Below, one piece after another: positions 5,247-37,176 of a DNA stretch of 37,894 nucleotides. Made by a program: the position numbers and the translations under genes. The stretch spans positions 1 to 37,894 of the forward strand of contig CBDANQ010000008.1 of assembly GCA_965197725.1 (NCBI GenBank). The letters run 5' to 3'. The notes below the pieces were generated by a model. That model made no database searches. It was not told where the DNA came from and saw only the letters and a program-made list of their open reading frames with translations. The DNA is from Longimicrobiales bacterium. Lineage in GTDB: Bacteria; Gemmatimonadota; Gemmatimonadetes; Longimicrobiales; Gaopeijiaceae. Numbering within the stretch: the first letter of the stretch is position 1; each line of letters opens with the position of its first letter.

Positions 5247-5732
5247 TTAGAAGCTGTATACGACTCGTAGGTACGTCATTCCACCGTGATAGCTGATCGG
5301 CGACCGGCGTGGGTAAGGCATGCCCTGTGACAAGCGCGTCGCGATCTCGTCCGGGAAATTGTTGAAGAGGTTGTTGGCTCTGCCGACCACGCTGAAATTC
5401 TCGTCGATCTGGTAGCTGAGCTCTGCGTCGATCAGCACTTCGGCGCCAACCACCTCTTGCTCGCCGCGTTCGTCAATGGTTCCGCTGTAGTAGTTGCCCC
5501 GGAGCGTCGCAGAGAATTGCTCGCCGAACCCTTCGGTCACCGAAAGCGTGGCCCGGTGCTTGGCCAGATTGTTCTCGATGTTGAAAATCAGGTCATCAGA
5601 CACGGGGTCCACGCCACCCACCTGCCGTTGTGTGAGAACTGTTGTTTCGTTGTAGTTGTATGCCAGACTGATGTCCGTGCTGTTGCCGTCGCCCCAAAGC
5701 GCGTTGTAGACCCCGACGACATCCAAACCGTC
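5247..5732 (-). pseudogene. TonB-dependent receptor, C-terminal fragment
   Basis: Amphipathic strands, DAELSYQ...ANNLFNNFP...GGMTYLRVVYSF with terminal Phe; the 5' part is replaced by IS256 sequence. Confidence 0.85.
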
Positions 5733-5771
5733 GGGCGGCATTCTTCCGCTGTTGGGTTGAGACGGGCTTTC

Positions 5772-6615
5772 AGCGAACGGGCTCTCGACCACGTTCGTCG
5801 TGCGTAGATGCTTCCAGTGATCCTCGGGGAAGTCGTAGAACGCCACCATCCGCTCCCAGTCGTCCTCGAGTACGTCCACCGCCTTCGGATACCACGGCCT
5901 GTAGCGCCTGGCGAACACTTCGCGGGCCTTCAGCGCCTCGGCCCGGCTCGGTGCGTATACCACGGCCCTGAGAAGATCCTTCGCCTCGCTCTGCTCGCGC
6001 TGCGGCAGCCGGTCCAGCACGTTCCTCATCTTGTGGTTCCAGCACCGTTGCTCGCCCGCCTCAGGCCATACCTGCCGTACTGCGCCCCAGATCGCCGTGT
6101 TGCCGTCCGCCATCAGAAGCCGCGGCGCCTCGATGCCGCGTGCCTTCAGATCCCGCAACACCTCCGACCAGGACTCGACCGACTCTCGGCAGCCCGATCT
6201 CAGGGCCAACACCTCCTTCGTCCCATCTCGCATCGCACCGAGAACCACCAGCAGCGCCGCCTTGTCCCGCTCGAGCCCTGCCTTCACGTAGATCCCGTCC
6301 GCCCATACGTAGACGACCTCACGGCCCTCCAGGCGACGCTGGCTCCATTCCTCGAACTCCCTTGTCCATCCCGCCCCAAGTCTCCGAATCGAAGACTTCG
6401 ACAGCGGTGCCCCCTCGCCTAGCAGTCCCCGCATCGCCAGCTCGAAGTCTCTCTCTGCCAGTCCGTGCAGATACAGCTCCGGAAGCAGAGCGCCCAGCTC
6501 CTTCGTCCGCCTCGCGAACAACAGCAGCACCCGACTCTCGAACCGCTCCTCGACGCCCCGAACCCGAGGGCGTCGGAGTGTGATCGTGCCCGAACTCATC
6601 GCCAACCGCCTCGGC
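5772..6615 (-). mobile_element. IS256-family transposase, internal fragment
   Basis: RRPRVR, LYLHGL, YVWADGIY, DGTKEVL...ES.ESW, ADG, QRCWNHK.RN, LRTTNVVES; both ends missing. Confidence 0.9.
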
Positions 6616-7229
6616 AGAGTAGCAGTGGCGTGAATCACGGCAAGGAATCGTCTAAGTTCAATTGGGACTGCACGATCTGCTGCACTTGCCGTCCTACCAT
6701 ACCTGATGCTGCCGTGCTTAAAGGGCGGGGAAACGGCATCAAGTGGCGGGTATGACTGGCAGGCATCTCGAACCCGGATCAAGGACCAGTTGTTTGGGGT
6801 CAGCACCGGTCCATTCGGATGTGTTGCAACTTTCAAAAATCAGCAAGAGAGCGACTGGTTGGGTCGACCAGGCTCCGTCTTATGCAGCCACTTCGAACAG
6901 CTTGTTGATGAACTGAATCTGTTGCCGAACATCCGAACCGCTCACCCACCTCGCCTGACCCTTCCGGATCATGTGAATTGCCTCATATCCTTGGATCGTT
7001 CGCCGTGCCGCGTGAAATTCACGAAGGCCCTGCTTGGCCTTCACGCGTCGTTTGATCGCTCTATGATCCTGCTCCAGGATGTTGTTCAAGTATTGGATCG
7101 GCCGGTGACGGCAACGGTGTCGCAGGATTCCTTACTGCTTCACTCCTGAAATCGCCGCGCCATAGAGGCGTGCTTTGGTCCGTATTGATAACCCGGGGCT
7201 GCCGATGCGACGGATTCGTCAGCGCCTTG

Positions 7230-8686
7230 GAAGCTGACCCAGCCGTAGTTGAAGGTCCCTGAAGAGGGAAAAGAAAAGTGGTGGCTCCGAGGGTGCCCGA
7301 TCCGATAGGATCGGGTGCGCTAAAAACCCAAAAACGGAGCCACCACGATGAAGAGAACGTACGAAGTAGCGAGTGACACGGACAGGCGTGCGATGGCTGA
7401 GTTCGTGAAGCGAGAAGGCCAGTTCCTGCTGCCGATGGTCGAGCTCGTAGAGCACACGGAGCTCGCGATCGACGAAGTCGTCCAGGTGATGGGCCGAGCG
7501 ACGATCGAGGCGGTACTCGAGATGAGCGCCGAAGGTGTGGCGGGCCCGAAGCAATCGGGCAAGGCACGCGAGGAGGGGGCGACGGTCTGGTACGGCCGCC
7601 AGGGCGGTCAGGTCTACCTGTCGGACCGAAAGGTCCGTATCCAGCGGCCTCGGCTGCGTGAGCGGACTGGCGGCCAGGGCGGCGAGGTCGAGGTGCCAGC
7701 GTACGAGGCGATGCGCAGGCCGGGCGCCATGGCGGACCGAATGTTGGAGATCCTGATGGCAGGTGTGAGCACCCGGAAATACGGCCAGGTGATCGGCGAG
7801 ATGGCCGACACGGTGGGGGTGAGCAAGTCGTCGGTGAGCCGCGAGACGATCGAAGCGTCGGAGCGCGTGCTGAAGGAGCTGATGGAGCGGCGGCTGGACG
7901 CATGGGATCTGTTGGTGATCTACCTGGACGGTATCCAACTCGGTGCGCACCACGTACTTGCGGCTGTGGGCGTGGACACGGACGGCAAGAAGCACGTGCT
8001 GGGGATGCGGCAGGGAGCGAGTGAGAACACCGAAGTGACGACGGCCCTGCTGCAGGATCTGGTCGAGCGGGGTCTGGACCCCGAGCGTCGACGCCTGTTC
8101 GTGATCGATGGCTCGAAGGCGTTACGGAAGGCGATTGTTCAGGTGTTCGGCGCGGGCCACTCGGTCCAGAGATGCCGAAACCACAAGCTCAGAAATGTGC
8201 TCGCTCACCTACCGAAGGATCAGCACCCGCAGGTGAAGGCCGCGATCCGCGCGGCCTGGAAGCTCGACGCGAGGGACGGCGTGCAGAAACTCGAGCAGCT
8301 CGCGCGGTGGCTTGAACGAGATCAGCCGTCGGCCGCAGCGAGCCTCAGGGAGGGGCTGGGTGAGATGTTCACGATCAACCGGCTTGGGCTACCGCCTCGG
8401 CTGAGGAAGTGCCTGGGGACCACGAACGTCATCGACAGCACCCACGCAGGCGTGAGGCAGAAGACCCGCAGGGTCACGAACTGGAAGAACGGAGCGATGG
8501 CACTGAGATGGGCCGCAGCCTCCTTCGTCGAGACCGAGAAGAACTACCGACGCATCGTCGGCTTCGATCAACTCTGGATGCTCAAAGCTCACCTCGATGA
8601 CCGCGAGCCGGTTGCCGAAATGAAGATGGCAGGTTAATCACGAAAGCCTCGGAGCCACCACCTCCAACTACAAACGGGTCATCTTC
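7230..8686 (+). mobile_element. Complete IS256-family element with 8-bp TSD GCGCCTTG
   Basis: IRs GAAGCTGACCCAGCCGTAGTTGAAGGT / GAAGATGACCCGTTTGTAGTTGGAGGT; GCGCCTTG at 7222-7229 and 8687-8694. Confidence 0.95.
7348..8637 (+). CDS. IS256-family transposase (intact)
   Basis: GVSTR, IYLDG, G.K.VLG...G.SEN, FVIDG.KAL, QRC..HK.RN, TTNVIDS. Confidence 0.95.
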   Translation: MKRTYEVASDTDRRAMAEFVKREGQFLLPMVELVEHTELAIDEVVQVMGRATIEAVLEMSAEGVAGPKQSGKAREEGATVWYGRQGGQVYLSDRKVRIQRPRLRERTGGQGGEVEVPAYEAMRRPGAMADRMLEILMAGVSTRKYGQVIGEMADTVGVSKSSVSRETIEASERVLKELMERRLDAWDLLVIYLDGIQLGAHHVLAAVGVDTDGKKHVLGMRQGASENTEVTTALLQDLVERGLDPERRRLFVIDGSKALRKAIVQVFGAGHSVQRCRNHKLRNVLAHLPKDQHPQVKAAIRAAWKLDARDGVQKLEQLARWLERDQPSAAASLREGLGEMFTINRLGLPPRLRKCLGTTNVIDSTHAGVRQKTRRVTNWKNGAMALRWAAASFVETEKNYRRIVGFDQLWMLKAHLDDREPVAEMKMAG

Positions 8687-10700: not shown

Positions 10701-10788
10701 CGCCGTCATGCCAGGGCTTTAGCGCCCCCGATTTCTCTGGACAGTAGATTGGCAGCGACGATGGGGTCCAGAGAGAGGGGGTGTTTTG

Positions 10789-11157
10789 ATGTCTCCCAAG
10801 CCTGGGGAGTCGAAAGCGACCGAAGGTCGTGAAGGAAGGGCGGAGCTGCCCAAGCGTTGGAGCGCGGGGCAGAAGACGGAGGTGGTGCTGCGACTGCTAC
10901 GCGGGGAGGACCTGGGCGAAGTGAGCCGTGAGGTCCAGGTCTCGCCTGCGGAGCTCGAGGAATGGCGGCGCGTGTTCCTGGAGGGAGGTCAGCAAGGTCT
11001 GAAACGCCGTAGCCGCGATCCCGGGGAACGTGAGCTGATCCGGACCCGGGCGAAGCTGGGCGAGGTGACGATGCGGATGGAGCTCGCGAGCGAGCTCCTC
11101 GAAAAAAGGGGCTACGGGGACGACCTGAAGAAGCTCTTGAAGCGCGGCAGCGAATGA
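10789..11157 (+). CDS. IS3-family OrfA (HTH)
   Basis: RWSAGQKTEVVLRLLRGE...L.EWR..FL; A6G run at 11102-11108 whose -1 frame is open into OrfB; ATGA overlap. Confidence 0.85.
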   Translation: MSPKPGESKATEGREGRAELPKRWSAGQKTEVVLRLLRGEDLGEVSREVQVSPAELEEWRRVFLEGGQQGLKRRSRDPGERELIRTRAKLGEVTMRMELASELLEKRGYGDDLKKLLKRGSE

Positions 11158-12035
11158 GTCCGGCGACGGGACGGCGCTACCCGCTGACGATGATCTGCGA
11201 GGTCTGGAGCATCGCTCGCTCGACGGTCTACCAGGCTGAGGAGCGAGGCAACGATGAGTCGAGGGAGCCGAAGAAGCGGGGCCCCAAAACGGAGCTGAGC
11301 GACGAGGCCTTGGTGGAAGAGATCCGGCAGGTACTCGAGGAGAGCGACTTCCTCGGCGAGGGGCACCGGAAGGTGAGGGTACGGCTGCGGCCCAAGGGGA
11401 TCTGGGTGGGCAAGAACAGGGTGCTGAGGCTCATGCGAGAGAACCGACTCCTGGCGCCGGTGCGTAAGGGAAGGCATCCCCGGGGCGACCGCAGCCACAG
11501 CGGCCGAATCACGACGGACACGCCCAACGAGCTGTGGGGCACGGATGCGACCAGATTCTATACGAAGGCCGACGGCTGGTGCTGGTTCTTCGGGGCCGTC
11601 GACCACTGCGTGAGCGATGTCGTCGGCTGGCACGTCGCGAAGAAGGGTGACCGGTGGGCGGCGCTCGAGCCGATCCGTCAGGGTGTGAGGACCTACATGG
11701 ACGGCTACGCTCCGAAGATCGCGCTCGGCCTCGGGCTACGACACGACTGGGGTCCCCAGTACACCGCACACCAGTTCCAGGGCGAACTCGCCTGGCTCGG
11801 CATCCGCTCGACGGCCTCCTACGTCGGCGAGCCCGAGTGCAACGGCGTGATCGAGCGGTTCATCAGGACGTTGAAGGAAGAGTGCCTCTACCTGCACGAC
11901 TTTGAGAGCCTGGAGGAGGCGAGGACGGTGATCGGAGGTTTCATCGAGCGTTACAACCGCGGTTGGCTCATCGAGCGGCACGGCCACAAGACCCCGGCCG
12001 AGGTCCGCGAGCAGCTCACCCGCATGGCGGCCTGA
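11154..12035 (+). CDS. IS3-family OrfB DDE transposase
   Basis: [41 protein letters not shown]...TP. Confidence 0.93.
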
Positions 12036-20249: not shown

Positions 20250-21744
20250 CAGACCGTGGATCAAGTCCGGTCATCGCTGTTGTGTTAAATCAGGAGGACA
20301 CGAGGGTTTTTGCAGCGAGGACGGCGATGGCGGTAGGCAAGCGGCCCGAGGCTCGGCAGGGCGAGATGTTCGTGGTGGCGAGCGAGATTCGGGCCTTGGA
20401 CAACCCGTTCTACCGGGCCTTGAACGAGCTTCTGGCGAAAAGCGGGTTTGACGAGTTCGCGGAAGAGGCATGCCGTGAGTTCTACGCGGACAATCGGGGT
20501 CGGCCGGGGATTGCTCCCGGGGTGTATTTCCGAATGATGATGGTGGGCTACCTGGAAGGGATCGGCTCGGAGCGGGGCATTGCCTGGCGGTGTGGGGACT
20601 CGTTGTCGTTGCGTGAGTTTCTGGGATACGGGTGGGCGAAGAACCCGCCGGAGCATTCGACCCTGTCGAAGACGCGCAAGCGCCTGAGCGTGGAAGCGCA
20701 CGCGGCGGTGTTCGGGCGGGTGCTGGAGCTGCTGAAGGGGTCGGGGTTGCTGAGCGGCAAGACGCTGGGCGTCGACTCGACGACGCTGGAGGCGAATGCG
20801 GCGATGCGCACGATCGTGCGGCGCGACGACGGGTTGGGCTACGATGAATGGCTGGAGCAGGTGGCCCGGGCGTCGGGGATCGAGACGCCGACGCGCAAGG
20901 ATCTGACGACGCTGGACCGGAAGCGTCCGAAGAAGGGCTCGAACAAGGACTGGGTGCATCCGCACGACCCGGAGGCGCGGATCACGAAGATGAAGGACGG
21001 CAGGACGCGCCTGGCGCACAAGTTGGAGCAGGCGGTCGACATGGAGACCGGTGCGCTTGTGGCGGTGACGGTGCAGACGATGGACGGGGGAGATGTGGCG
21101 TCGCTGCCCAACACGCTGGACGAGGCAGAGCGGCAGCTGGAAGTAGTGCAGGTAGAGCCCGAGGAAGTGGTGGCCGACAAAGGCTACCACTCGAACAAGA
21201 CCATGACGGGCGTGAAGGAGCGGGAGCTGCGCAGCTATGTGAGCGAGCCCAACCGCGGGCGCCGGAAATGGAAGAACAACCGGGACGCGCAGACGCCGAC
21301 CTACGACAACCGCCGCCGGATCCGCGGCAACCGGGGGATGCGGCTGCTGCGCCAGCGCGGCGAGAAGGTGGAGCGGGGGTTTGCGCACTTGCTTGTGACC
21401 GGAGGGCTGCGTCGCGTCCACATACGGGGCCAGGAGGAGATTCGAAAACGGATGTTGATCCACGCGGCGGCCTTCAACCTCGGCCTTCTCATGCGCAAGC
21501 GGTTCGGGGTTGGAACCCCCCGTGCGTTACAGGGCCTCGCTACCGTACAAGCTGCGCTCGCAACTCAGGTTACAACCCGCGTCTCGCGCTTTTTCCGCCG
21601 TATTCGGCGCTATTTCGCCTTCCTTGGGCCGAATATCGCCTCGTCAGACCCCAAAACCCGCTTCTTGCACAACAACACAGCCCCCGCGTGTCTGCCTTCT
21701 CTCCCACCCATCATCCGCTGGGAACCTATTTCTTCCACGGACTG
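20250..21744 (+). mobile_element. Complete IS1182/IS5-like element with 4-bp TSD CTAC
   Basis: IRs CAGACCGTGGATCAA / CAGTCCGTGGAAGAA; CTAC at 20246-20249 and 21745-21748. Confidence 0.93.
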
Positions 21745-22003
21745 CTACGCCACCGACGAGGAAGACCCACTCCATCAGGGCCTGATTTCCGCCGGTCATC
21801 GACACGATCTGGGTCTCGAATTGCCATCCGAATTGGCTCATGATGACTTCCTTGCCGATCGAGTTGCGCTGATCGGCCACGTCGCCGGTGAACGTGGTGA
21901 AGCCGAAGCGGGGTCCCGAGAGGTGCTGACGGGGGAGCTGTTTCACCCTCATGGCCTCAGGGACGTCGGGCCGTTGTGCGTGGGCAGGCTGGAAGGACGC
22001 TAA
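20327..22003 (+). CDS. IS1182-family transposase that reads through past the IS end
   Basis: GRPG..P..YFRM, GI.SER, PEHSTLS, GVDSTTLEANA, VVADKGY, R..VER.FA; no stop inside the element. Confidence 0.9.
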   Translation: MAVGKRPEARQGEMFVVASEIRALDNPFYRALNELLAKSGFDEFAEEACREFYADNRGRPGIAPGVYFRMMMVGYLEGIGSERGIAWRCGDSLSLREFLGYGWAKNPPEHSTLSKTRKRLSVEAHAAVFGRVLELLKGSGLLSGKTLGVDSTTLEANAAMRTIVRRDDGLGYDEWLEQVARASGIETPTRKDLTTLDRKRPKKGSNKDWVHPHDPEARITKMKDGRTRLAHKLEQAVDMETGALVAVTVQTMDGGDVASLPNTLDEAERQLEVVQVEPEEVVADKGYHSNKTMTGVKERELRSYVSEPNRGRRKWKNNRDAQTPTYDNRRRIRGNRGMRLLRQRGEKVERGFAHLLVTGGLRRVHIRGQEEIRKRMLIHAAAFNLGLLMRKRFGVGTPRALQGLATVQAALATQVTTRVSRFFRRIRRYFAFLGPNIASSDPKTRFLHNNTAPACLPSLPPIIRWEPISSTDCYATDEEDPLHQGLISAGHRHDLGLELPSELAHDDFLADRVALIGHVAGERGEAEAGSREVLTGELFHPHGLRDVGPLCVGRLEGR

Positions 22004-30481: not shown

Positions 30482-32851
30482 GTGGTACAATGCCATCTCG
30501 CGCCTCGCGCACAGCCGGGGCGTGCCGCCGGCGTCGCCTCGGCGTTTCTGGGTTTCCTGTTCTTTTCCGTTCCGACTGAAGCCCAGGTTCCCCAGGGACC
30601 TCAGAAACCACGAGCCGGTGATCCCGCGGCATCGCCGCCCGCCGTCTCCGTCCCGACGGACGTGGAACTCGGGCTCGTGGCTGGTCGCCCGAGAGTCCGC
30701 CCGATCCGTCTGGACACGCCTCCGGCTATCGACGGGCGCTTGGACGACGAGGCATGGCAGAGGGCTCCCATTCTAACGGAATTCGTCCAGCAGAGTCCAC
30801 TCGACGGGGCCCCGGCTACCGAGCAGACCGAGGTCTGGGTCGCGTACGATAGCGACCACATCTACTTCGCGGCCCACGTACATTACGAGGACCCCTCGAT
30901 CATGCGCGCCAACCGGGTGGACCGTGACCGGGCGTTCGCCGACGACCTCTTCACCGTCTACCTCGACACCTTCATGAACCAGCAGCGGGCCTACGACTTC
31001 GACGTGAACCCGTACAACGTGCAGGGCGACGGCATCCTGAACGCGGGTGGACGGGGCTCTGGGAGCCAGGCGATTCCCCGCGCCGACCGGTCGTGGGACG
31101 TGCTCTTCGACTCCGGCGCTCAGATCGTCGACGACGGATACACGGTCGAAATGGCCATCCCCTTCAAGAGCATCCGGTATCCGCGGCGGAGCGAGGGGGT
31201 CCCTCACCACTGGGGCTTCCAGATCGTGCGCGAGATAAAGGGGAAGGATGAGGAGAACATCGTGTGGGCGCCCATGTCGCGGGACGAGTCGAGCTTCTTC
31301 CAGCAGATGGGCGTCATCGAGGGAATGACGGACCTCTCGGTGGGCCGCAACCTCGAGATCCTTCCCTCGTTCACGGCGATCCAGTTCGGCGAGATCGATG
31401 CCGCCCGGCCCGGTGGGCCCGGCTTCGTCAATGAGGACACGGACCCCGATGCCGGCCTCAACCTGAAATACGGGATCACGTCTAACCTCACGCTCGACGC
31501 GACGATCAACCCCGACTTCTCGCAGATCGAGTCCGATCTTCCCCAGATCGAGGTCAACCAGCGCTTCCCCCTTTTCTTTGAGGAGCTCCGTCCTTTTTTC
31601 ATCGAGGGTGCCGACATCTTCGACATCTCGGCGCCCCTGGTGATGGTGCATTCACGCACCATCGTCGACCCCGATTTCGGAGCGAAGCTGACCGGGAAAG
31701 TGGGCAAGCTCAGCTTCGGCGCGCTGGTAGCCGACGATGCGGGTCCGGGCCGGGTCGGCGATCCCGCGGACCCGTTGTTCGAGCGGAAGGCGCAGACATA
31801 CGTCGGCCGTACGCGGTTCGATCTCTATTCGGAGTCTTTCATCGGCGCGATCTTCACGGACCGGGAGTTCATGAACAGCTACAGTCGGCTGGGTGGATCG
31901 GACGGGATCCTACGGCTCGATGCGACGCGCATACTGAACTACAATGTGATGGGGACGAGCCGGCGGGGTCTGGACGGGGTAGAGGAGACCGGCTTCATGT
32001 GGGACGTGCGGGTCCGGCAGAGGGCCCGCAACCTCAGCTGGAGCCTGCTCGCATATCAGGTATCGCCCGACTTCGAGACGGACGTCGGCTTTGTTCGCCG
32101 GAACGATCAACAGATTATGCGGGGTCAGGTCGGCTACCTCTTCTGGCCCGAGAGCACAGTGATCAACTGGGGTCCGGAGGTTCGCTACGAGCGGAACTGG
32201 GACTTCGACGACGTGCTGCAAGACGAGGACCTTCAGTTCACGCTGAACTTCAACCTCGCGAATAACATCAGTTTCAGCGGCGACTACAATCGTACGCTCG
32301 AGCGGTTCGGGGGCATCGACTTCGACAAGAACCGGTTCTCCGTACGGGCGAACGTGAATTCGAGCCGACGGTTTTCTTTTGGAGGCTCTGCTCAGGTCGG
32401 CGACGAGATCCGGTTCGATGACGATCCGTTCCTCGGCGACGCGGTGCGGTGGAACGTCTTCTCGACCCTCCGGCCGATCCCGCGGCTGACCTCGAACGTG
32501 AGGATCCAGACGAGTCGGCTCACGGATCCGCGGAACGGGAATCAGGAGGTCTTCGACGTGAAGATTTTGCGGGCGCAGACCACGCTGCAGCTGACCGACC
32601 GGCTCTCTCTGCGTAACATCTCCGAGTTCAACACCTTCGACGAGACGCTGGACCTCAACATCCTCTTCACCTATCGGGTGAACGCCGGCACGGTGTTCTA
32701 CGTCGGATACGACGATCACTACCGCCAGGCCGATCTCATCGGTGGAGACATCGACGGCGACGGGCTCAACGAGCAGCTCTTCTTCGAGAGCGACCTCCGC
32801 CGCACGAGCCGAGCGCTCTTCACGAAGTTCCGGTATCTGTTCCGAATGTAG
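30482..32851 (+). CDS. CBM9-like/DUF5916 outer-membrane protein
   Basis: IDGRLDDEAW, TEV...YD...Y, EMAIPFKSIRY, NPDFSQIESD, RF.LFFEE.RPFF.EG, beta-strand C-terminus K..Y.FRM; start uncertain. Confidence 0.85.
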   Translation: MVQCHLAPRAQPGRAAGVASAFLGFLFFSVPTEAQVPQGPQKPRAGDPAASPPAVSVPTDVELGLVAGRPRVRPIRLDTPPAIDGRLDDEAWQRAPILTEFVQQSPLDGAPATEQTEVWVAYDSDHIYFAAHVHYEDPSIMRANRVDRDRAFADDLFTVYLDTFMNQQRAYDFDVNPYNVQGDGILNAGGRGSGSQAIPRADRSWDVLFDSGAQIVDDGYTVEMAIPFKSIRYPRRSEGVPHHWGFQIVREIKGKDEENIVWAPMSRDESSFFQQMGVIEGMTDLSVGRNLEILPSFTAIQFGEIDAARPGGPGFVNEDTDPDAGLNLKYGITSNLTLDATINPDFSQIESDLPQIEVNQRFPLFFEELRPFFIEGADIFDISAPLVMVHSRTIVDPDFGAKLTGKVGKLSFGALVADDAGPGRVGDPADPLFERKAQTYVGRTRFDLYSESFIGAIFTDREFMNSYSRLGGSDGILRLDATRILNYNVMGTSRRGLDGVEETGFMWDVRVRQRARNLSWSLLAYQVSPDFETDVGFVRRNDQQIMRGQVGYLFWPESTVINWGPEVRYERNWDFDDVLQDEDLQFTLNFNLANNISFSGDYNRTLERFGGIDFDKNRFSVRANVNSSRRFSFGGSAQVGDEIRFDDDPFLGDAVRWNVFSTLRPIPRLTSNVRIQTSRLTDPRNGNQEVFDVKILRAQTTLQLTDRLSLRNISEFNTFDETLDLNILFTYRVNAGTVFYVGYDDHYRQADLIGGDIDGDGLNEQLFFESDLRRTSRALFTKFRYLFRM

Positions 32852-33045
32852 GGGCCGGACGAGCCTCGGTCCCGGTCTCGCGTCACGTAGGACGTAGGGT
32901 CCCGTCCCACACCGACCAGACCAGACCGTGGGCTTCTCGGACGATGTCTGGCGAGGGCCGAGCTGGGCGGGTACTTTGGCCGGCCACATCCCTTGGGTCC
33001 CTTGGAAGCCACAAAGAGTTACCGCTGGTCATTTAGGAGGCGCTG

Positions 33046-33684
33046 ATGAATTTATTGATAAGAGACATTGATGAGATGATCGAAGAAAGAAGTTTACTTA
33101 AACATCCATTTTATCAGATGTGGTCAGACGGAGAGCTTTCTCACGAATCACTTGCGGGTTATTCTCAAGAGTATTTTCAATTAGTCCAAGCCATACCCCA
33201 ATTTATGACTCCTATAATTGAGCAAGCTCCAGAATCGATTGTAAAAGAATTAGTTCACAATCGACAAGAAGAATCTGAACACATTCAACCATGGATTAAC
33301 TTTGCTGACTGCCTAGGAATTTCTCAACAAGAACTTGAGCAATATCCCGGTCTAATAAAAACGCAACAAGCAGTTTCACAATTAAAGTCTCTCATGTCTG
33401 ATTATGCAAGCGGTTCATGTGCGATGTACGCATTTGAAAAAGAGATTCCGAAGATCAGCCAAGTAAAACTAGAAGGTTTAGCGCGATTTTATGGTATTAC
33501 TACTGGCGGTGCGATAGAATACTTTAAGCTTCATACTGAAGCTGACATTAGACATGCTGCTGTATGGAGAGATATTCTAGAATCAGTATGGACGGATCAA
33601 GAAGAAGCACTTATCCAGGTTGCTGATGAATCAATGTCAGCTCAAAATCTATTGCTTGATAGTTGTTATGAAGCTTACTGTTGA
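33046..33684 (+). CDS. CADD/PqqC/TenA heme-oxygenase-like diiron protein (putative pABA synthase), low GC
   Basis: LLKHPFYQMWSDGEL, YSQEYF, EE..HI..W..FA..LG, YAFEKEIPKIS..KL.GL, YF..H.EADIRH; AGGAGG SD at 33035-33040. Confidence 0.88.
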   Translation: MNLLIRDIDEMIEERSLLKHPFYQMWSDGELSHESLAGYSQEYFQLVQAIPQFMTPIIEQAPESIVKELVHNRQEESEHIQPWINFADCLGISQQELEQYPGLIKTQQAVSQLKSLMSDYASGSCAMYAFEKEIPKISQVKLEGLARFYGITTGGAIEYFKLHTEADIRHAAVWRDILESVWTDQEEALIQVADESMSAQNLLLDSCYEAYC

Positions 33685-33887
33685 GTTCTGTAACAATTTT
33701 ATACTGAGGGTATTCGCCGGCCTGCAGCGGCTGGCCGGCTGCTGAAAGGGGAAACGTGGATACTGTGACTTCCGCGACGTGTGCGGAGGCAGTCGTGCGC
33801 GCGCCTGGGCTGTAACAGGGGATTACTTGGCCCCCGAGCCTTACCGCGGTCACATGCCGCAAGCTGGGCGGAACCGGGCGCTTCCCC

Positions 33888-34337
33888 TCAGCCGCCCGGC
33901 TTGATCCGGAATCCCCCGTCCTCCGTCCGCTCGCGAAACTCCTGGTGGCAGGCGAGGCACGTCGACCTCAGGTCACCGAACGCCTGATCCGCCCGCTCGC
34001 CGTCCTCTGCGTCACTCGCACTCAAAAGTGCGGCGGTCGCTGCGAGCGCTTGCTCGGTGCAGTCGACGGCGCTCTGAACCTCACGTGCCATCCAAAACGT
34101 CTGCACCTGCTGCAGCAGCGACCTTAGCGCAACCATATCGTTTCTGACGTCCCCCCAGTACTTGGCTTCGATATGGCCCTCCGCATCCCCCCTCACGTAG
34201 TTCATCTCCTCCATGGCGGCGGCGTAGTCCGCCTCGTTCAAGACCGCCTGCTGGCACTCGACCGACGAGCGAAACGCGCCCAGCATGAAGGCGACTGACA
34301 CGACGGAAAAGACGATGATTGGTCCGCGAGAACGCAT
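33888..34337 (-). CDS. Class II (c'-like) cytochrome c
   Basis: Signal peptide, helical body, CLACH near the C-terminus. Confidence 0.75.
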   Translation of the reverse strand: MRSRGPIIVFSVVSVAFMLGAFRSSVECQQAVLNEADYAAAMEEMNYVRGDAEGHIEAKYWGDVRNDMVALRSLLQQVQTFWMAREVQSAVDCTEQALAATAALLSASDAEDGERADQAFGDLRSTCLACHQEFRERTEDGGFRIKPGG

Positions 34338-34461
34338 GTGGGTCCCTCTCCCAAGGTCGAATGAACCAAAGATACGTAAGGACGGACGGTCCTCCGAGTG
34401 TAGGCAATGCATCTCGTCAGCGACAGAACGTCGGGTAACTCACCGAGTCCGCCACCGGGAA

Positions 34462-34700
34462 CTACAGCGCGGCGTGGCTGGAGCCATTCATCCGCATGAG
34501 GAGCAGAACACGCAGTACCTGGTCCCCGCTCATCCCTCGGGCACCCCACTCCGGATGGCGCACGCCCGCACCAGGTCTTGCTCGATGAGCCCCGCCATGC
34601 CACGATGATCGTCTAGGATGTGGCTCATCTTGGCCAGTTCCTCCGCGTGGCTGTGCTCGATCCAGAGCCGGTCCAGAGACATCTGCTCGCGACGGCGCAT
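34462..34700 (-). mobile_element. ISNCY-like transposase N-terminal fragment, frameshifted
   Basis: MRRREQMSL...H.HAEEL.KMS.ILD......IEQDLV / GARGMSGDQVLR..LL..MNG. Confidence 0.6.
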
Positions 34701-34851
34701 TCAGCGGTCTTCTGTGTGCCCGTAGGCTGTGATTCGACACCACCAATCTACGCGCTACGCATGGATACGAATTCCGCAAGGATGTGTCGTTACTCGTTGG
34801 GACCTACGCGGTTGTAACTTTCCGGATGGGAACTAACTAAGAGAGGAGAGC

Positions 34852-37176
34852 ATGGCGAGTACGCCCGCGCGCGGCGGCGTCCGATCGGCGCTTCTCCCTT
34901 GGCTCACCCTGCTGGTCGGTCTCCTGATTGCGACCGTCCAGCCGGCGTGGGCCCAGCCGAGCGAGGAAGGCCTGTCCCCTGGCGGCGCGCCGGATACAGC
35001 CAAGGTCATCGACCCGCGTTCGATGGACCCGCACGACTTTCGTGCCGTCGCCGTCCGCCTCCCCGAGGGCGTGGCGCTGCGCATCGACGGTCAGCTCGAC
35101 GACGACGCATGGCAGCTCGCCCCCGCCTTCGGAGGCTTCATCCAGCGCGAGCCCGAAGTCGGGGCGCCCTCCTCACACCGCACGGAGTTCCGGATCCTCT
35201 ACGACGACGCTCGGATGTATGTGGCCGTCTGGGCGTTCGAGCCCCATGAGGGTGGCGTGATCGCAAGCGAGATGTTGCGCGGTTCGGGCCTGCGCAAAGG
35301 AGATGCGGTCCGGGTCACGTTCGACACCTTCCACGACCACCGAAACCTGTTCTACTTCAGCACAAATCCCCTGGGCGCCTTCAAGGATGGATACGCGACC
35401 GACAACGGGCGTATGAACTTCGATTGGCAGGCCGTGTGGGACGTCAAGACTTCCGAGGACGAACAGGGTTGGTACTCGGAGTTCGAGATCCCGCTGAGCC
35501 AGATGCGCTTTCTGGATCAGCCCGGGGAGCAGATCTGGGGCGTCAACGTCATGCGCATGATCATGCACAGCAGAGAAGAATCCTCGTGGGTTCCGCTTCC
35601 GCGCGAATGGGGACGTGGGGCCATCGCCCGGGCCTCGGGCAGTGGGCTTCTGCTCGGGCTGGATGATCTCACGCATCGCCGTAGGCTCGAGCTCATTCCC
35701 TTCTTCGCCCCCGGGGTCACTCGCGATTTCGATGCCGGGACGCCGACGGACTGGAGAAGAGAGTTAGGCGGGGACTTGCGGATCGGTCTCACCCAGTCGC
35801 TCAACGCCGATCTCACCTACCGCACGGATTTCGCCCAGGTCGAGGCAGACCAGGAGATCGTCAACCTCAGCCGCTTCAGTCTCTTCTTCCCCGAGAAGCG
35901 GCAGTTCTTCATCGAAGGCGCAGGCACCTTCGACTATGGCGTCCGAGGGGGGGGCGGCGGCAGAGTTACCGGGGGGCTCCTGCCCATCTTCTACAGCCGC
36001 AGGATCGGGCTCAGCAGCGCTGGTCAACAGGTCCCGATTCTCGGGGGCGGGAGGGTGACCGGGAACCCGGGGTCGTATACGGTGGGCCTGCTCAACATGC
36101 AGACAGACGTCGCCCGCTATGCCGCCGGTGATTCGATCGTCGAGATCCCCCGGGCCAACTACACGGTCGCGCGGCTCAAGCGCAACGTGCTCAGCTCCTC
36201 GAGCGTGGGCGTCATCGCCGTCAACCGTCAGGGCATGGTGGGTGGGAGCGCCTACAACCGCAGCCTGGGCGTCGACGGCGTATTCACGCTGCCGAACAAC
36301 GTGCGGGTCGTCTCCCTGCTTGCCAAGACCTTCTCGCCCGGCATCGAGGACCGTGACATGGCCGGCGCGCTCACGATCGACTGGACGTCCGACCGCTTCG
36401 GCGTAAGGGGCGGCTACACCGACATCCAGGAGGACTTCACCGCCGAGGTGGGGTTCATCCGACGGGTCGACATCCGGAGCTCTAACCTCGGTGCGAGCTG
36501 GACACCGCGCCCGGGCTGGCTCGGCGTGCGCAATCTCTTGGTGGACGCCGACCTGGAGAACATCGACAACCACCAGGGGACACTGGAGTCACGCAAGAGC
36601 GAGCTAAGCCTCTCCCTGATGTGGAACGACGCATCCAACGTTCGTGCCGGCGTGTCCAACGAGTACGATCTGCTGGTTTCACCGTTCGATGTCGGACCCA
36701 ATGCCGTTGCCCCCGGAGCCTATTCTTTCAACATCGTCTCGACCAGCTTCGGCACGGACGACAGCAGGCGCGTTTACGGGGGCGGCGGAGCGGAGCTCGG
36801 AGAATACTATGGCGGGAGCAGACGCACCCTGACCGCGAATCTGAACTTCCTGGCGCAGGCAACCCTCCTCTTCGAGAACGACTACACGCGCAACCGGATC
36901 GCCCTGCCGAACAGCCCGACGTACGTCACGAACACGCTCAACACGCGCGTCACCTATTCGATATCGCCGACCCTGTTCCTTAAGGCGTTCGTGCAGTACA
37001 ACGACGAGAGGAAGCTGACCAACCTGAACCTGCTGCTCTGGTCGATCTACCGACCCGGCAGCGATCTGTACATCGTATACAACCAAGGGTGGGAAATCGG
37101 CCTGCCCGGCCCCGACGGACCGCGCGTGCGGGGCCGTTCCCTGGCGATCAAGTTTACATACTGGCTGTCCCGTTAG
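34852..37176 (+). CDS. CBM9-like/DUF5916 outer-membrane protein
   Basis: Signal peptide, IDGQLDDDAW, DTFHD.RN, EFEIP, TDFAQVEADQE.VNL.RFSLFFPEKR.FF.EG; GAGGAG SD. Confidence 0.88.
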   Translation: MASTPARGGVRSALLPWLTLLVGLLIATVQPAWAQPSEEGLSPGGAPDTAKVIDPRSMDPHDFRAVAVRLPEGVALRIDGQLDDDAWQLAPAFGGFIQREPEVGAPSSHRTEFRILYDDARMYVAVWAFEPHEGGVIASEMLRGSGLRKGDAVRVTFDTFHDHRNLFYFSTNPLGAFKDGYATDNGRMNFDWQAVWDVKTSEDEQGWYSEFEIPLSQMRFLDQPGEQIWGVNVMRMIMHSREESSWVPLPREWGRGAIARASGSGLLLGLDDLTHRRRLELIPFFAPGVTRDFDAGTPTDWRRELGGDLRIGLTQSLNADLTYRTDFAQVEADQEIVNLSRFSLFFPEKRQFFIEGAGTFDYGVRGGGGGRVTGGLLPIFYSRRIGLSSAGQQVPILGGGRVTGNPGSYTVGLLNMQTDVARYAAGDSIVEIPRANYTVARLKRNVLSSSSVGVIAVNRQGMVGGSAYNRSLGVDGVFTLPNNVRVVSLLAKTFSPGIEDRDMAGALTIDWTSDRFGVRGGYTDIQEDFTAEVGFIRRVDIRSSNLGASWTPRPGWLGVRNLLVDADLENIDNHQGTLESRKSELSLSLMWNDASNVRAGVSNEYDLLVSPFDVGPNAVAPGAYSFNIVSTSFGTDDSRRVYGGGGAELGEYYGGSRRTLTANLNFLAQATLLFENDYTRNRIALPNSPTYVTNTLNTRVTYSISPTLFLKAFVQYNDERKLTNLNLLLWSIYRPGSDLYIVYNQGWEIGLPGPDGPRVRGRSLAIKFTYWLSR

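Follow-up and report, generated by a model that had tools for sequence, protein, structure and literature searches.

Our analysis of a 37,894-nt stretch of DNA from a Longimicrobiales bacterium (Gemmatimonadota), referred to here as the window, revealed a gene of archaeal origin embedded in GC-rich bacterial DNA. The window is the entire contig C8 of the host assembly G000 (3.0 Mb, 61 contigs, 88.9% complete, 2% contamination), and the gene is a CADD/PabS-type open reading frame (ORF) at 33046-33684 on the plus strand, which runs from an ATG start to a TGA stop and encodes 212 aa. We consider a genuine archaea-to-bacterium transfer the probable explanation, by which a ~710-bp Nitrosopumilaceae fragment would have brought in what is likely a working p-aminobenzoate (pABA) synthase gene. 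Archaea-to-bacteria transfers are known in bulk, and the event is a well-resolved further case of this known kind of inter-domain transfer. What is rarely caught in such transfers is the combination of two junctions mapped to ~10 bases, a known donor gene order, and visible first steps of adaptation, which here comprise an apparent promoter loss, the gain of a candidate ribosome-binding site, and a rise in GC under purifying selection. The cargo itself likewise stands out, as it appears to be an enzyme that destroys itself for each single molecule of a vitamin precursor. If it is active, a one-gene pABA route would be moving between domains, which bears on the question of who makes and who uses folate precursors in the sea.

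Archaeal origin and boundaries of the insert

The initial annotation of this DNA had described an AT-rich one-gene islet with an intact ORF and a strong AGGAGG motif, and our GC scan, the 212-aa reading frame, and a Shine-Dalgarno-like (SD) AGGAGG at 33035-33040 (plus strand, 5 nt ahead of the ATG) confirmed this description. The gene has a GC content of 0.377 (0.259 at third codon positions), compared with 0.634 in the remaining window. Steps of 200 nt gave GC values of 0.36-0.41 across 33000-33700 and 0.56-0.71 on either side, and among 59,606 segments of 400 nt covering the assembly (mean 0.646, standard deviation 0.031), this region was the sole stretch below 0.45. The translation of 33046-33684 holds HPFY, QEESEH, YAFE, HTEADIRH, and QVKLEGL, together with the N-terminal IEERSLLKHPFYQMWSDG and the C-terminal SAQNLLLDSCYEAYC, so that every motif quoted in the initial annotation was recovered.

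The protein search retrieved 3169 relatives at E ≤ 0.001, and among the best 120 matches listed, the 119 non-self proteins were 69-84% identical to the window protein, with all organism names shown belonging to Nitrosopumilaceae archaea. In species-representative genomes, 339 stretches encode a CADD relative, and the best 80 of these, which were kept as loci, carry archaeal record titles throughout at 67-74% identity. The closest metagenome-contig matches were the loci L083 (83%), L084 (79%), and L085 (75%), located on contigs with 34-37% GC throughout (34% for L083 and L084). Eleven protein matches (P0002-P0011 and P0014) were 97.6-100% identical to the L083 protein and therefore represent the same archaeal population, while the closest protein to the window in the collection reached 84%. 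At L083/L084-type loci, the archaeal gene order consists of nuoL/M/N-like genes, a polyprenyl synthetase gene (minus strand), the CADD gene (plus), tRNA-Met(CAT) (plus), and a phosphoribosyltransferase gene (minus).

For tree building, clean ORFs were obtained from 157 of the 160 loci and reduced to 138 after the removal of identical sequences. The nucleotide tree (FastTree) joined the window gene to L083 with a support of 0.994, and with L084 added the support was 0.999. In the protein tree (150 tips, rooted with a 33%-identical bacterial homologue from the genome G007), the window protein was placed at least 12 nodes deep within the archaeal clade, on a terminal branch of 0.149 compared with an archaeal median of 0.023. 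No close CADD homologue was found in 60 relatives of the host, four of them from the same genus; G007 alone has a distant one (33%). In the protein collection clustered at 90%, the window protein forms a cluster of its own. Archaeal origin is thus strongly supported: the Nitrosopumilus-type affinity suggested in the initial annotation was upheld by the protein matches listed, the genome loci, and the trees, and the proposed archaea-to-bacteria direction by the deep nesting among archaea and by archaeal non-coding flanks. Nitrosopumilaceae CADD-type genes such as those at L083, L084, and L003 share 67-84% protein identity with the window gene, match its length to within one residue, and have matching non-coding flanks. 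The window copy differs from them in lying in bacterial DNA, in a GC content 5 points above its nearest relatives, and in the loss of the adjacent tRNA-Met gene and of the T-rich box upstream.

Alignment of the window with four archaeal loci delimited an archaeal-derived segment of ~710-718 bp at 33000-33717 (plus strand), which comprises the gene, ~45 nt of upstream and ~25-33 nt of downstream archaeal non-coding DNA. In steps of 10 nt, identity to L083 climbs at 33000 from 3-5/10 to 8/10 and drops at 33710 from 8-9/10 to 3/10, and homology to L084 can be traced to ~33717. The segment ends ~10 nt short of the archaeal tRNA-Met start: the TTTTATA at 33698-33704 (plus strand) is retained intergenic sequence that in archaea lies just 5' of tRNA-Met(CAT), a gene absent from the window, and Rfam and tRNA scans of the locus and of 33700-34900 detected neither a tRNA remnant nor a known RNA. 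The upstream flank has been rewritten. Across 43 comparable columns it carries 9 AT>GC changes, 0 GC>AT changes, 2 other changes, and 2 indels. The octamer GTTACCGC at 33018-33025 (plus strand) is aligned with the T-rich box TTTTTTAT, which is kept in all four archaeal loci and which we interpret as a putative TATA element. At the site of the archaeal AGGATATGAC, the window reads AGGAGGCG-C, and the resulting AGGAGG would presumably be used in translation.

Two further features of the junctions were noted. A GC-rich inverted repeat (GCCGGCC ... GGCCGGC, 33717-33745) directly follows the archaeal segment and is not followed by a T run; readings of this hairpin as an integron cassette or a terminator were judged by eye and rejected, and the scan found no terminator-like site. 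An exact 10-nt direct repeat, AGCTGGGCGG, at 32961-32970 and 33862-33871 (30 and 145 nt from the segment ends), was set aside as an insertion mark because we estimate that chance alone would give about two such pairs in a GC-rich region of 2.2 kb.

Substitution pattern and catalytic residues

Changes were polarised by three-taxon counts, with the sister L083 agreeing with the outgroup L084. The window lineage accumulated 52 unique changes versus 18 in L083 (binomial p = 6e-5), and of these 52, 39 were AT>GC and 8 GC>AT (binomial p = 5.5e-6 against parity). Two further outgroup sets gave the same picture with fewer sites, while the archaeal control, covering 90 terminal lineages, gave an AT>GC to GC>AT ratio of 613:428 (Fisher p = 7e-4 against the window). 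Where a codon carried just one AT>GC change, this change was synonymous in 16 cases and non-synonymous in 9, compared with a neutral expectation of 63-71% non-synonymous (p 0.0003-0.006), which corresponds to an omega of ~0.23-0.34. Taken together with the rewritten upstream region, the AT>GC pattern is consistent with the gene having spent time in GC-rich DNA. The initial annotation had called the gain recent; given the strong AT>GC excess and the rewritten upstream region, this is unsupported as worded, although the gene is rare among close strains.

The encoded protein matched PF14518 at 57.4 bits (cut-off 28.9) and PF03070 at 37.5 bits, and the haem-oxygenase-like domain spans its whole length. 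Its best NCBIfam model was TIGR04305 ("CADD family putative folate metabolism protein") at 168.1 bits, below the 200-bit cut-off. Four archaeal homologues (165-172 bits) and the bacterial homologue from G007 (176 bits) were likewise sub-threshold, and, judging from these scores, the shortfall is a property of the whole clade and not of the window copy alone. PDB chains named 4-aminobenzoate synthase (9pj4, 8va9) and CT610 (1rcw) matched residues 4-212 at E values of 2e-30 to 1e-28.

According to the reports on CT610, the CADD protein of Chlamydia trachomatis, Tyr27 is cleaved off to become the pABA ring, Lys152 is the amine donor, Tyr43 is essential, and the enzyme performs a single turnover (PMC9522330, PMC11965152, 10.1101/2022.08.01.502304). 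The window protein matched this self-sacrificing Mn/Fe 4-aminobenzoate synthase (1rcw, 8va9) over its full length at E ~1e-28. In the HMMER alignment to 1rcw, E76, H79, E131, H163, D167, and H170 of the window protein correspond to E81, H88, E142, H174, D178, and H181 of CT610, and Y23, Y39, and K141 to Y27, Y43, and K152. The first six of these CT610 residues are what we take to be its dimetal ligands, so that the window protein retains the six metal ligands together with the equivalents of Tyr27, Tyr43, and Lys152. The claim that the CADD metal ligands, the tyrosine of HPFY, and the lysine of QVKLEGL are kept was borne out by this alignment, and membership of the CADD family is supported by sequence. 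None of the nine positions (Y23, Y39, K141, E76, H79, E131, H163, D167, and H170) varies across the 137 non-redundant archaeal homologues. Of the 117 columns with at least 95% conservation in these homologues, the window protein matches 111, all catalytic positions included, and departs from the other six by K30E, K41Q, K48Q, V50I, Q73R, and T157I.

Unlike CT610, the window gene stands outside any folate gene cluster, and the identity between the two proteins is only about one third, as judged by eye on the alignment. Tyr141 of CT610 is replaced by Phe130 in the window protein, and Tyr170 is kept as Tyr159. The same family includes NePabS (NE1434) of Nitrosomonas europaea, an Fe/Fe pABA synthase for which Tyr25 and Lys159 are reported as sacrificial residues and two Phe-versus-Tyr positions as decisive for Fe/Fe or Mn/Fe use (PMC11965152). 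Placed through the CT610 alignment and not through NePabS itself, the two positions tentatively correspond to a Phe and a Tyr in the window protein, an assignment that does not predict its metal preference. By analogy with these characterised relatives, the window protein most likely works as they do. To our knowledge, the archaeal form of the CADD enzyme has never been tested. Searching the literature for this transfer, or for how ammonia-oxidising archaea make pABA, gave nothing relevant, and the Nitrosopumilus papers retrieved name 4-aminobenzoic acid only as a medium component.

Folate context and competing explanations

No PabB was found in the host G000 or in the four same-genus genomes G001-G004, where the only chorismate-binding enzymes recovered were TrpE, present in all five, and isochorismate synthase, present in G001-G003 and not found in G000. 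The TrpE gene of G000 (C55:27534-29145), the sole chorismate-binding gene found in the host and 91-96% identical to that of G001, is split into two frames near residues 425-448, which may reflect a frameshift or a low-coverage assembly error. FolC was detected in 5/5 of these genomes and DHFR (PF00186) in 0/5. G002 alone yielded FolB, FolK, and FolP, in one cluster (C2:344919-346634); they were not found in three of the four genus relatives, two of which are 99% complete, and a tblastn search with the G002 FolK-FolP fusion gave no match in G000. Since these three enzymes were not found in the host, no pABA-using enzyme is in evidence there, and, judging from gene content, most of the genus looks unable to make dihydropteroate. 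The suggested folate-precursor bypass thus stands in one part, as PabB was found neither in the host nor in its four same-genus relatives, and is unsupported in the other, as FolB, FolK, and FolP were not found either and no user of the product is thus in evidence. The puzzle is that no dihydropteroate synthase (DHPS) was detected in a host carrying a pABA synthase-type gene.

Across the 61 genomes searched, DHPS scored above cut-off in 41, a tally that takes in two unpublished genomes, G037 and G056, both matching and used for no other conclusion, and its distribution was patchy across the host's family. The CADD-like gene of G007, a Gemmatimonadota genome of this same family, lies at locus L002 (G007:C10:83268-83906), 2.8 kb upstream of a DHPS gene (G007:C10:86666-87424). 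This gene shares TIGR04305 as its model with the window gene, from which it differs in being only 33% identical and having 67% GC. These features suggest a native-looking, folate-linked copy that is not of the archaeal type, and with it a native bacterial CADD route in the family. Each of four complete archaeal chromosomes encodes a DHPS-type protein (~290 aa) and a single chorismate-binding enzyme, a gene content that fits CADD as the pABA source of those archaea.

In the transfer that we favor, a ~710-bp fragment of a Nitrosopumilaceae core chromosome would have become fixed in GC-rich bacterial DNA. The fragment consists of a CADD/PabS-type gene and its short non-coding flanks, cut ~10 nt before a tRNA-Met gene. 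In its present marine Gemmatimonadota host, it forms the left end of a rare accessory segment, which also contains a cytochrome c'-like gene and an insertion sequence (IS) remnant. Since diverging from its closest archaeal relatives, the gene has accumulated mainly AT>GC changes while remaining under purifying selection, the T-rich archaeal upstream box has been overwritten, and AGGATA has become AGGAGG. Part of the GC shift may have occurred earlier, while the segment resided in a different bacterium. Expression would probably rely on read-through from the upstream gene combined with the SD motif. The enzyme is predicted to be dimetal, O2-dependent, and single-turnover, with the side chain of its own Tyr23 being cut off and aminated from Lys141 to yield p-aminobenzoate.

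Several observations weigh against this transfer of a working gene. The AT>GC fraction of 0.83 in the window is barely above the archaeal maximum of 0.81 (range 0.33-0.81 across the 28 lineages that had 15 or more polarised changes). Three-taxon parsimony also carries a bias in AT-rich DNA, which is why archaeal lineages were counted as a control. The branch partly predates the transfer, so the signal of purifying selection is not purely bacterial and some of it may be archaeal. The CADD gene is a singleton, whereas adjacent core genes belong to 90% clusters of 7-38 members, and a residence long enough for the GC shift would lead one to expect sharing by close strains, unless there was a second transfer or frequent loss. 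No sigma-70-like promoter was found upstream of CADD on the plus strand, and FolB, FolK, and FolP were not found in a host assembly that is 88.9% complete. Finally, sequencing depth at the locus is only ~3x, the coverage is at the level of contigs and not of raw reads, and the right junction comes from the probable source run alone.

This last point bears on whether the contig is an assembly or binning artefact that joined archaeal reads to bacterial sequence, a reading suggested by the ~3x depth, the metagenomic nature of the sample, and the single occurrence of the gene in the collection, and to which we assign a very small probability. In the Logan assembly of the probable source run (X15), an independent assembly of that run, a 3521-nt contig spans 32300-34500 with 0 differences at a depth of 3.2, and a second run of the same sample (X16) supplied a 157-nt unitig that matches 32966-33122 with 0 differences, thereby bridging the left junction. 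Of the two junctions over which the initial annotation had proposed read mapping, the left one is covered in two runs of one sample and the right one in X15 only, by contigs at depth 2-3. Bacterial DNA resumes on both sides after ~710 bp, the junctions sit within sequence that is homologous to archaea yet GC-shifted, the 3.0-Mb bin has no further region below 45% GC, and no archaeal copy at ≥90% identity over the gene was seen in the source run. A spliced archaeal sequence would be expected to carry the T-rich upstream box, which the window copy has lost. A plain assembly chimera is therefore unlikely. Somewhat less remote, though still improbable, is an archaeal donor lineage that has escaped sampling and whose gene was somewhat richer in GC, in which case the coding AT>GC changes would predate a very recent transfer. 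Archaeal homologues do span 0.30-0.42 GC, the AT>GC fraction goes up to 0.81 in one of the archaeal lineages, close strains are without the gene, and a seawater run (X1) contains variants 89-99% identical over 33173-33652 whose flanks are not displayed in any piece. Such a donor would nevertheless have to account for the upstream flank, with its 9 AT>GC and 0 GC>AT changes and the loss of a T-rich box found in all four aligned archaeal loci, a loss that an archaeon would tolerate with difficulty; moreover, the depth of one of the X1 variants (5.7-6.8) matches that of bacterial right-flank pieces in X1 (5.7-5.9).

The alternative that we take most seriously, even if we doubt it, accepts a real transfer and regards the gene as a functionless passenger, which arrived directly or with an accessory segment from another bacterium in a host that cannot couple pABA to pterin. 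The restriction of FolB, FolK, and FolP to G002 among G000-G004, with the blank tblastn result in G000, speaks for this possibility, as do the singleton status of the gene, the equal rarity of its right-hand neighbours, the IS remnant 735 nt downstream, and the failure to find a promoter-like site upstream. Yet the ORF is intact and retains 111 of the 117 conserved columns and every catalytic residue, the AT>GC changes are skewed to synonymous sites, and the SD motif has been strengthened rather than decayed. In addition, G000 is 88.9% complete, and folB-folK-folP form a single cluster in G002, such that one missing contig could hide them. Beyond the transfer that we favor lies a more speculative extension, which we think unlikely, namely that a marine Gemmatimonadota lineage domesticated an archaeal single-turnover pABA synthase, with its promoter erased, an SD motif evolved from the archaeal leader, and selection acting in a host without the pterin branch of folate synthesis. 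If this were true, pABA would be used outside the host's own folate synthesis (e.g., released to partners), or the enzyme would perform a chemistry other than pABA formation.

Genomic surroundings of the insert

To the left of the archaeal segment lies a gene for a DUF5916/CBM9 protein of 789 aa (30482-32851, plus strand), which is conserved host DNA (90% cluster of 7 members, on contigs of up to 3.67 Mb) and has same-genus homologues at 58-62% identity. To the right lies a high-GC cytochrome c'-like gene (33888-34337, minus strand; 149 aa as called in the collection; PF01322, 27.1 bits), which is rare (90% cluster of 2), with only 9 proteins at E ≤ 1e-10 and the nearest non-self one at 87%. 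It is followed by a truncated 5' IS remnant (34420-34839, minus strand), made up of the upstream end and the opening ~119 codons of a frame-broken DUF772-type transposase gene. Over 423 nt, this remnant is 79% identical to G001:C73, at the start of an intact-looking 440-aa ORF with PF05598 (28 bits), and G001:C10 is a partial second match. Stops interrupt the window copy, and its fragments alone gave no Pfam match, so the element was identified through its G001 counterpart. The right neighbour, again rare (90% cluster of 2), encodes another DUF5916 protein (774 aa; 34852-37176, plus strand). Cluster sizes at 90% were 21 for IspH, 23 for Fpg, 38 for PadR, 15 for the GHMP kinase, and 7 for the left-hand DUF5916 protein, versus 1 for CADD, and the proteins clustering with Fpg and PadR carry Gemmatimonadota names. 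These sizes, together with the IS remnant, place the archaeal segment at the boundary between conserved host DNA and a rare accessory segment.

About five close assemblies that contain the left neighbour are evidently without CADD. No empty site was recovered in G001-G004, where unrelated genes follow the left-neighbour homologues and the right flank is not syntenic. The 5-point GC shift in a gene absent from close strains suggests either an earlier life in other GC-rich bacteria with a secondary arrival in this strain, or frequent loss. Run X1, which comes from another study, contains two variants of the gene at depths of ~10 and ~5.8, both much closer to the window gene than any archaeal homologue in the collections, and this level of identity hints, as part of the speculative domestication reading, that a family of GC-shifted copies may be circulating in seawater bacteria. 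Right-flank pieces in X1 were 92-97% identical to the window, and no piece joins the gene variants to the flanks; neither X1 nor X2 yielded a junction-bridging piece. One X1 right-flank piece ceases to match at 33713 and continues for 15 unaligned letters, which would represent either an empty site or mere divergence.

The contig further encodes IspH, a squalene/phytoene synthase, and an MFS transporter. It is also rich in mobile elements, with two Mutator-family transposases, an IS3-type integrase pair, and a DUF772 plus DDE_Tnp_1 transposase located at 5247-6836 (minus strand) and at 7348-8637, 10786-12035, and 20282-22003 (plus strand), as well as a group II intron domain at 215-359 on the minus strand (RF00029, 44.8 bits).

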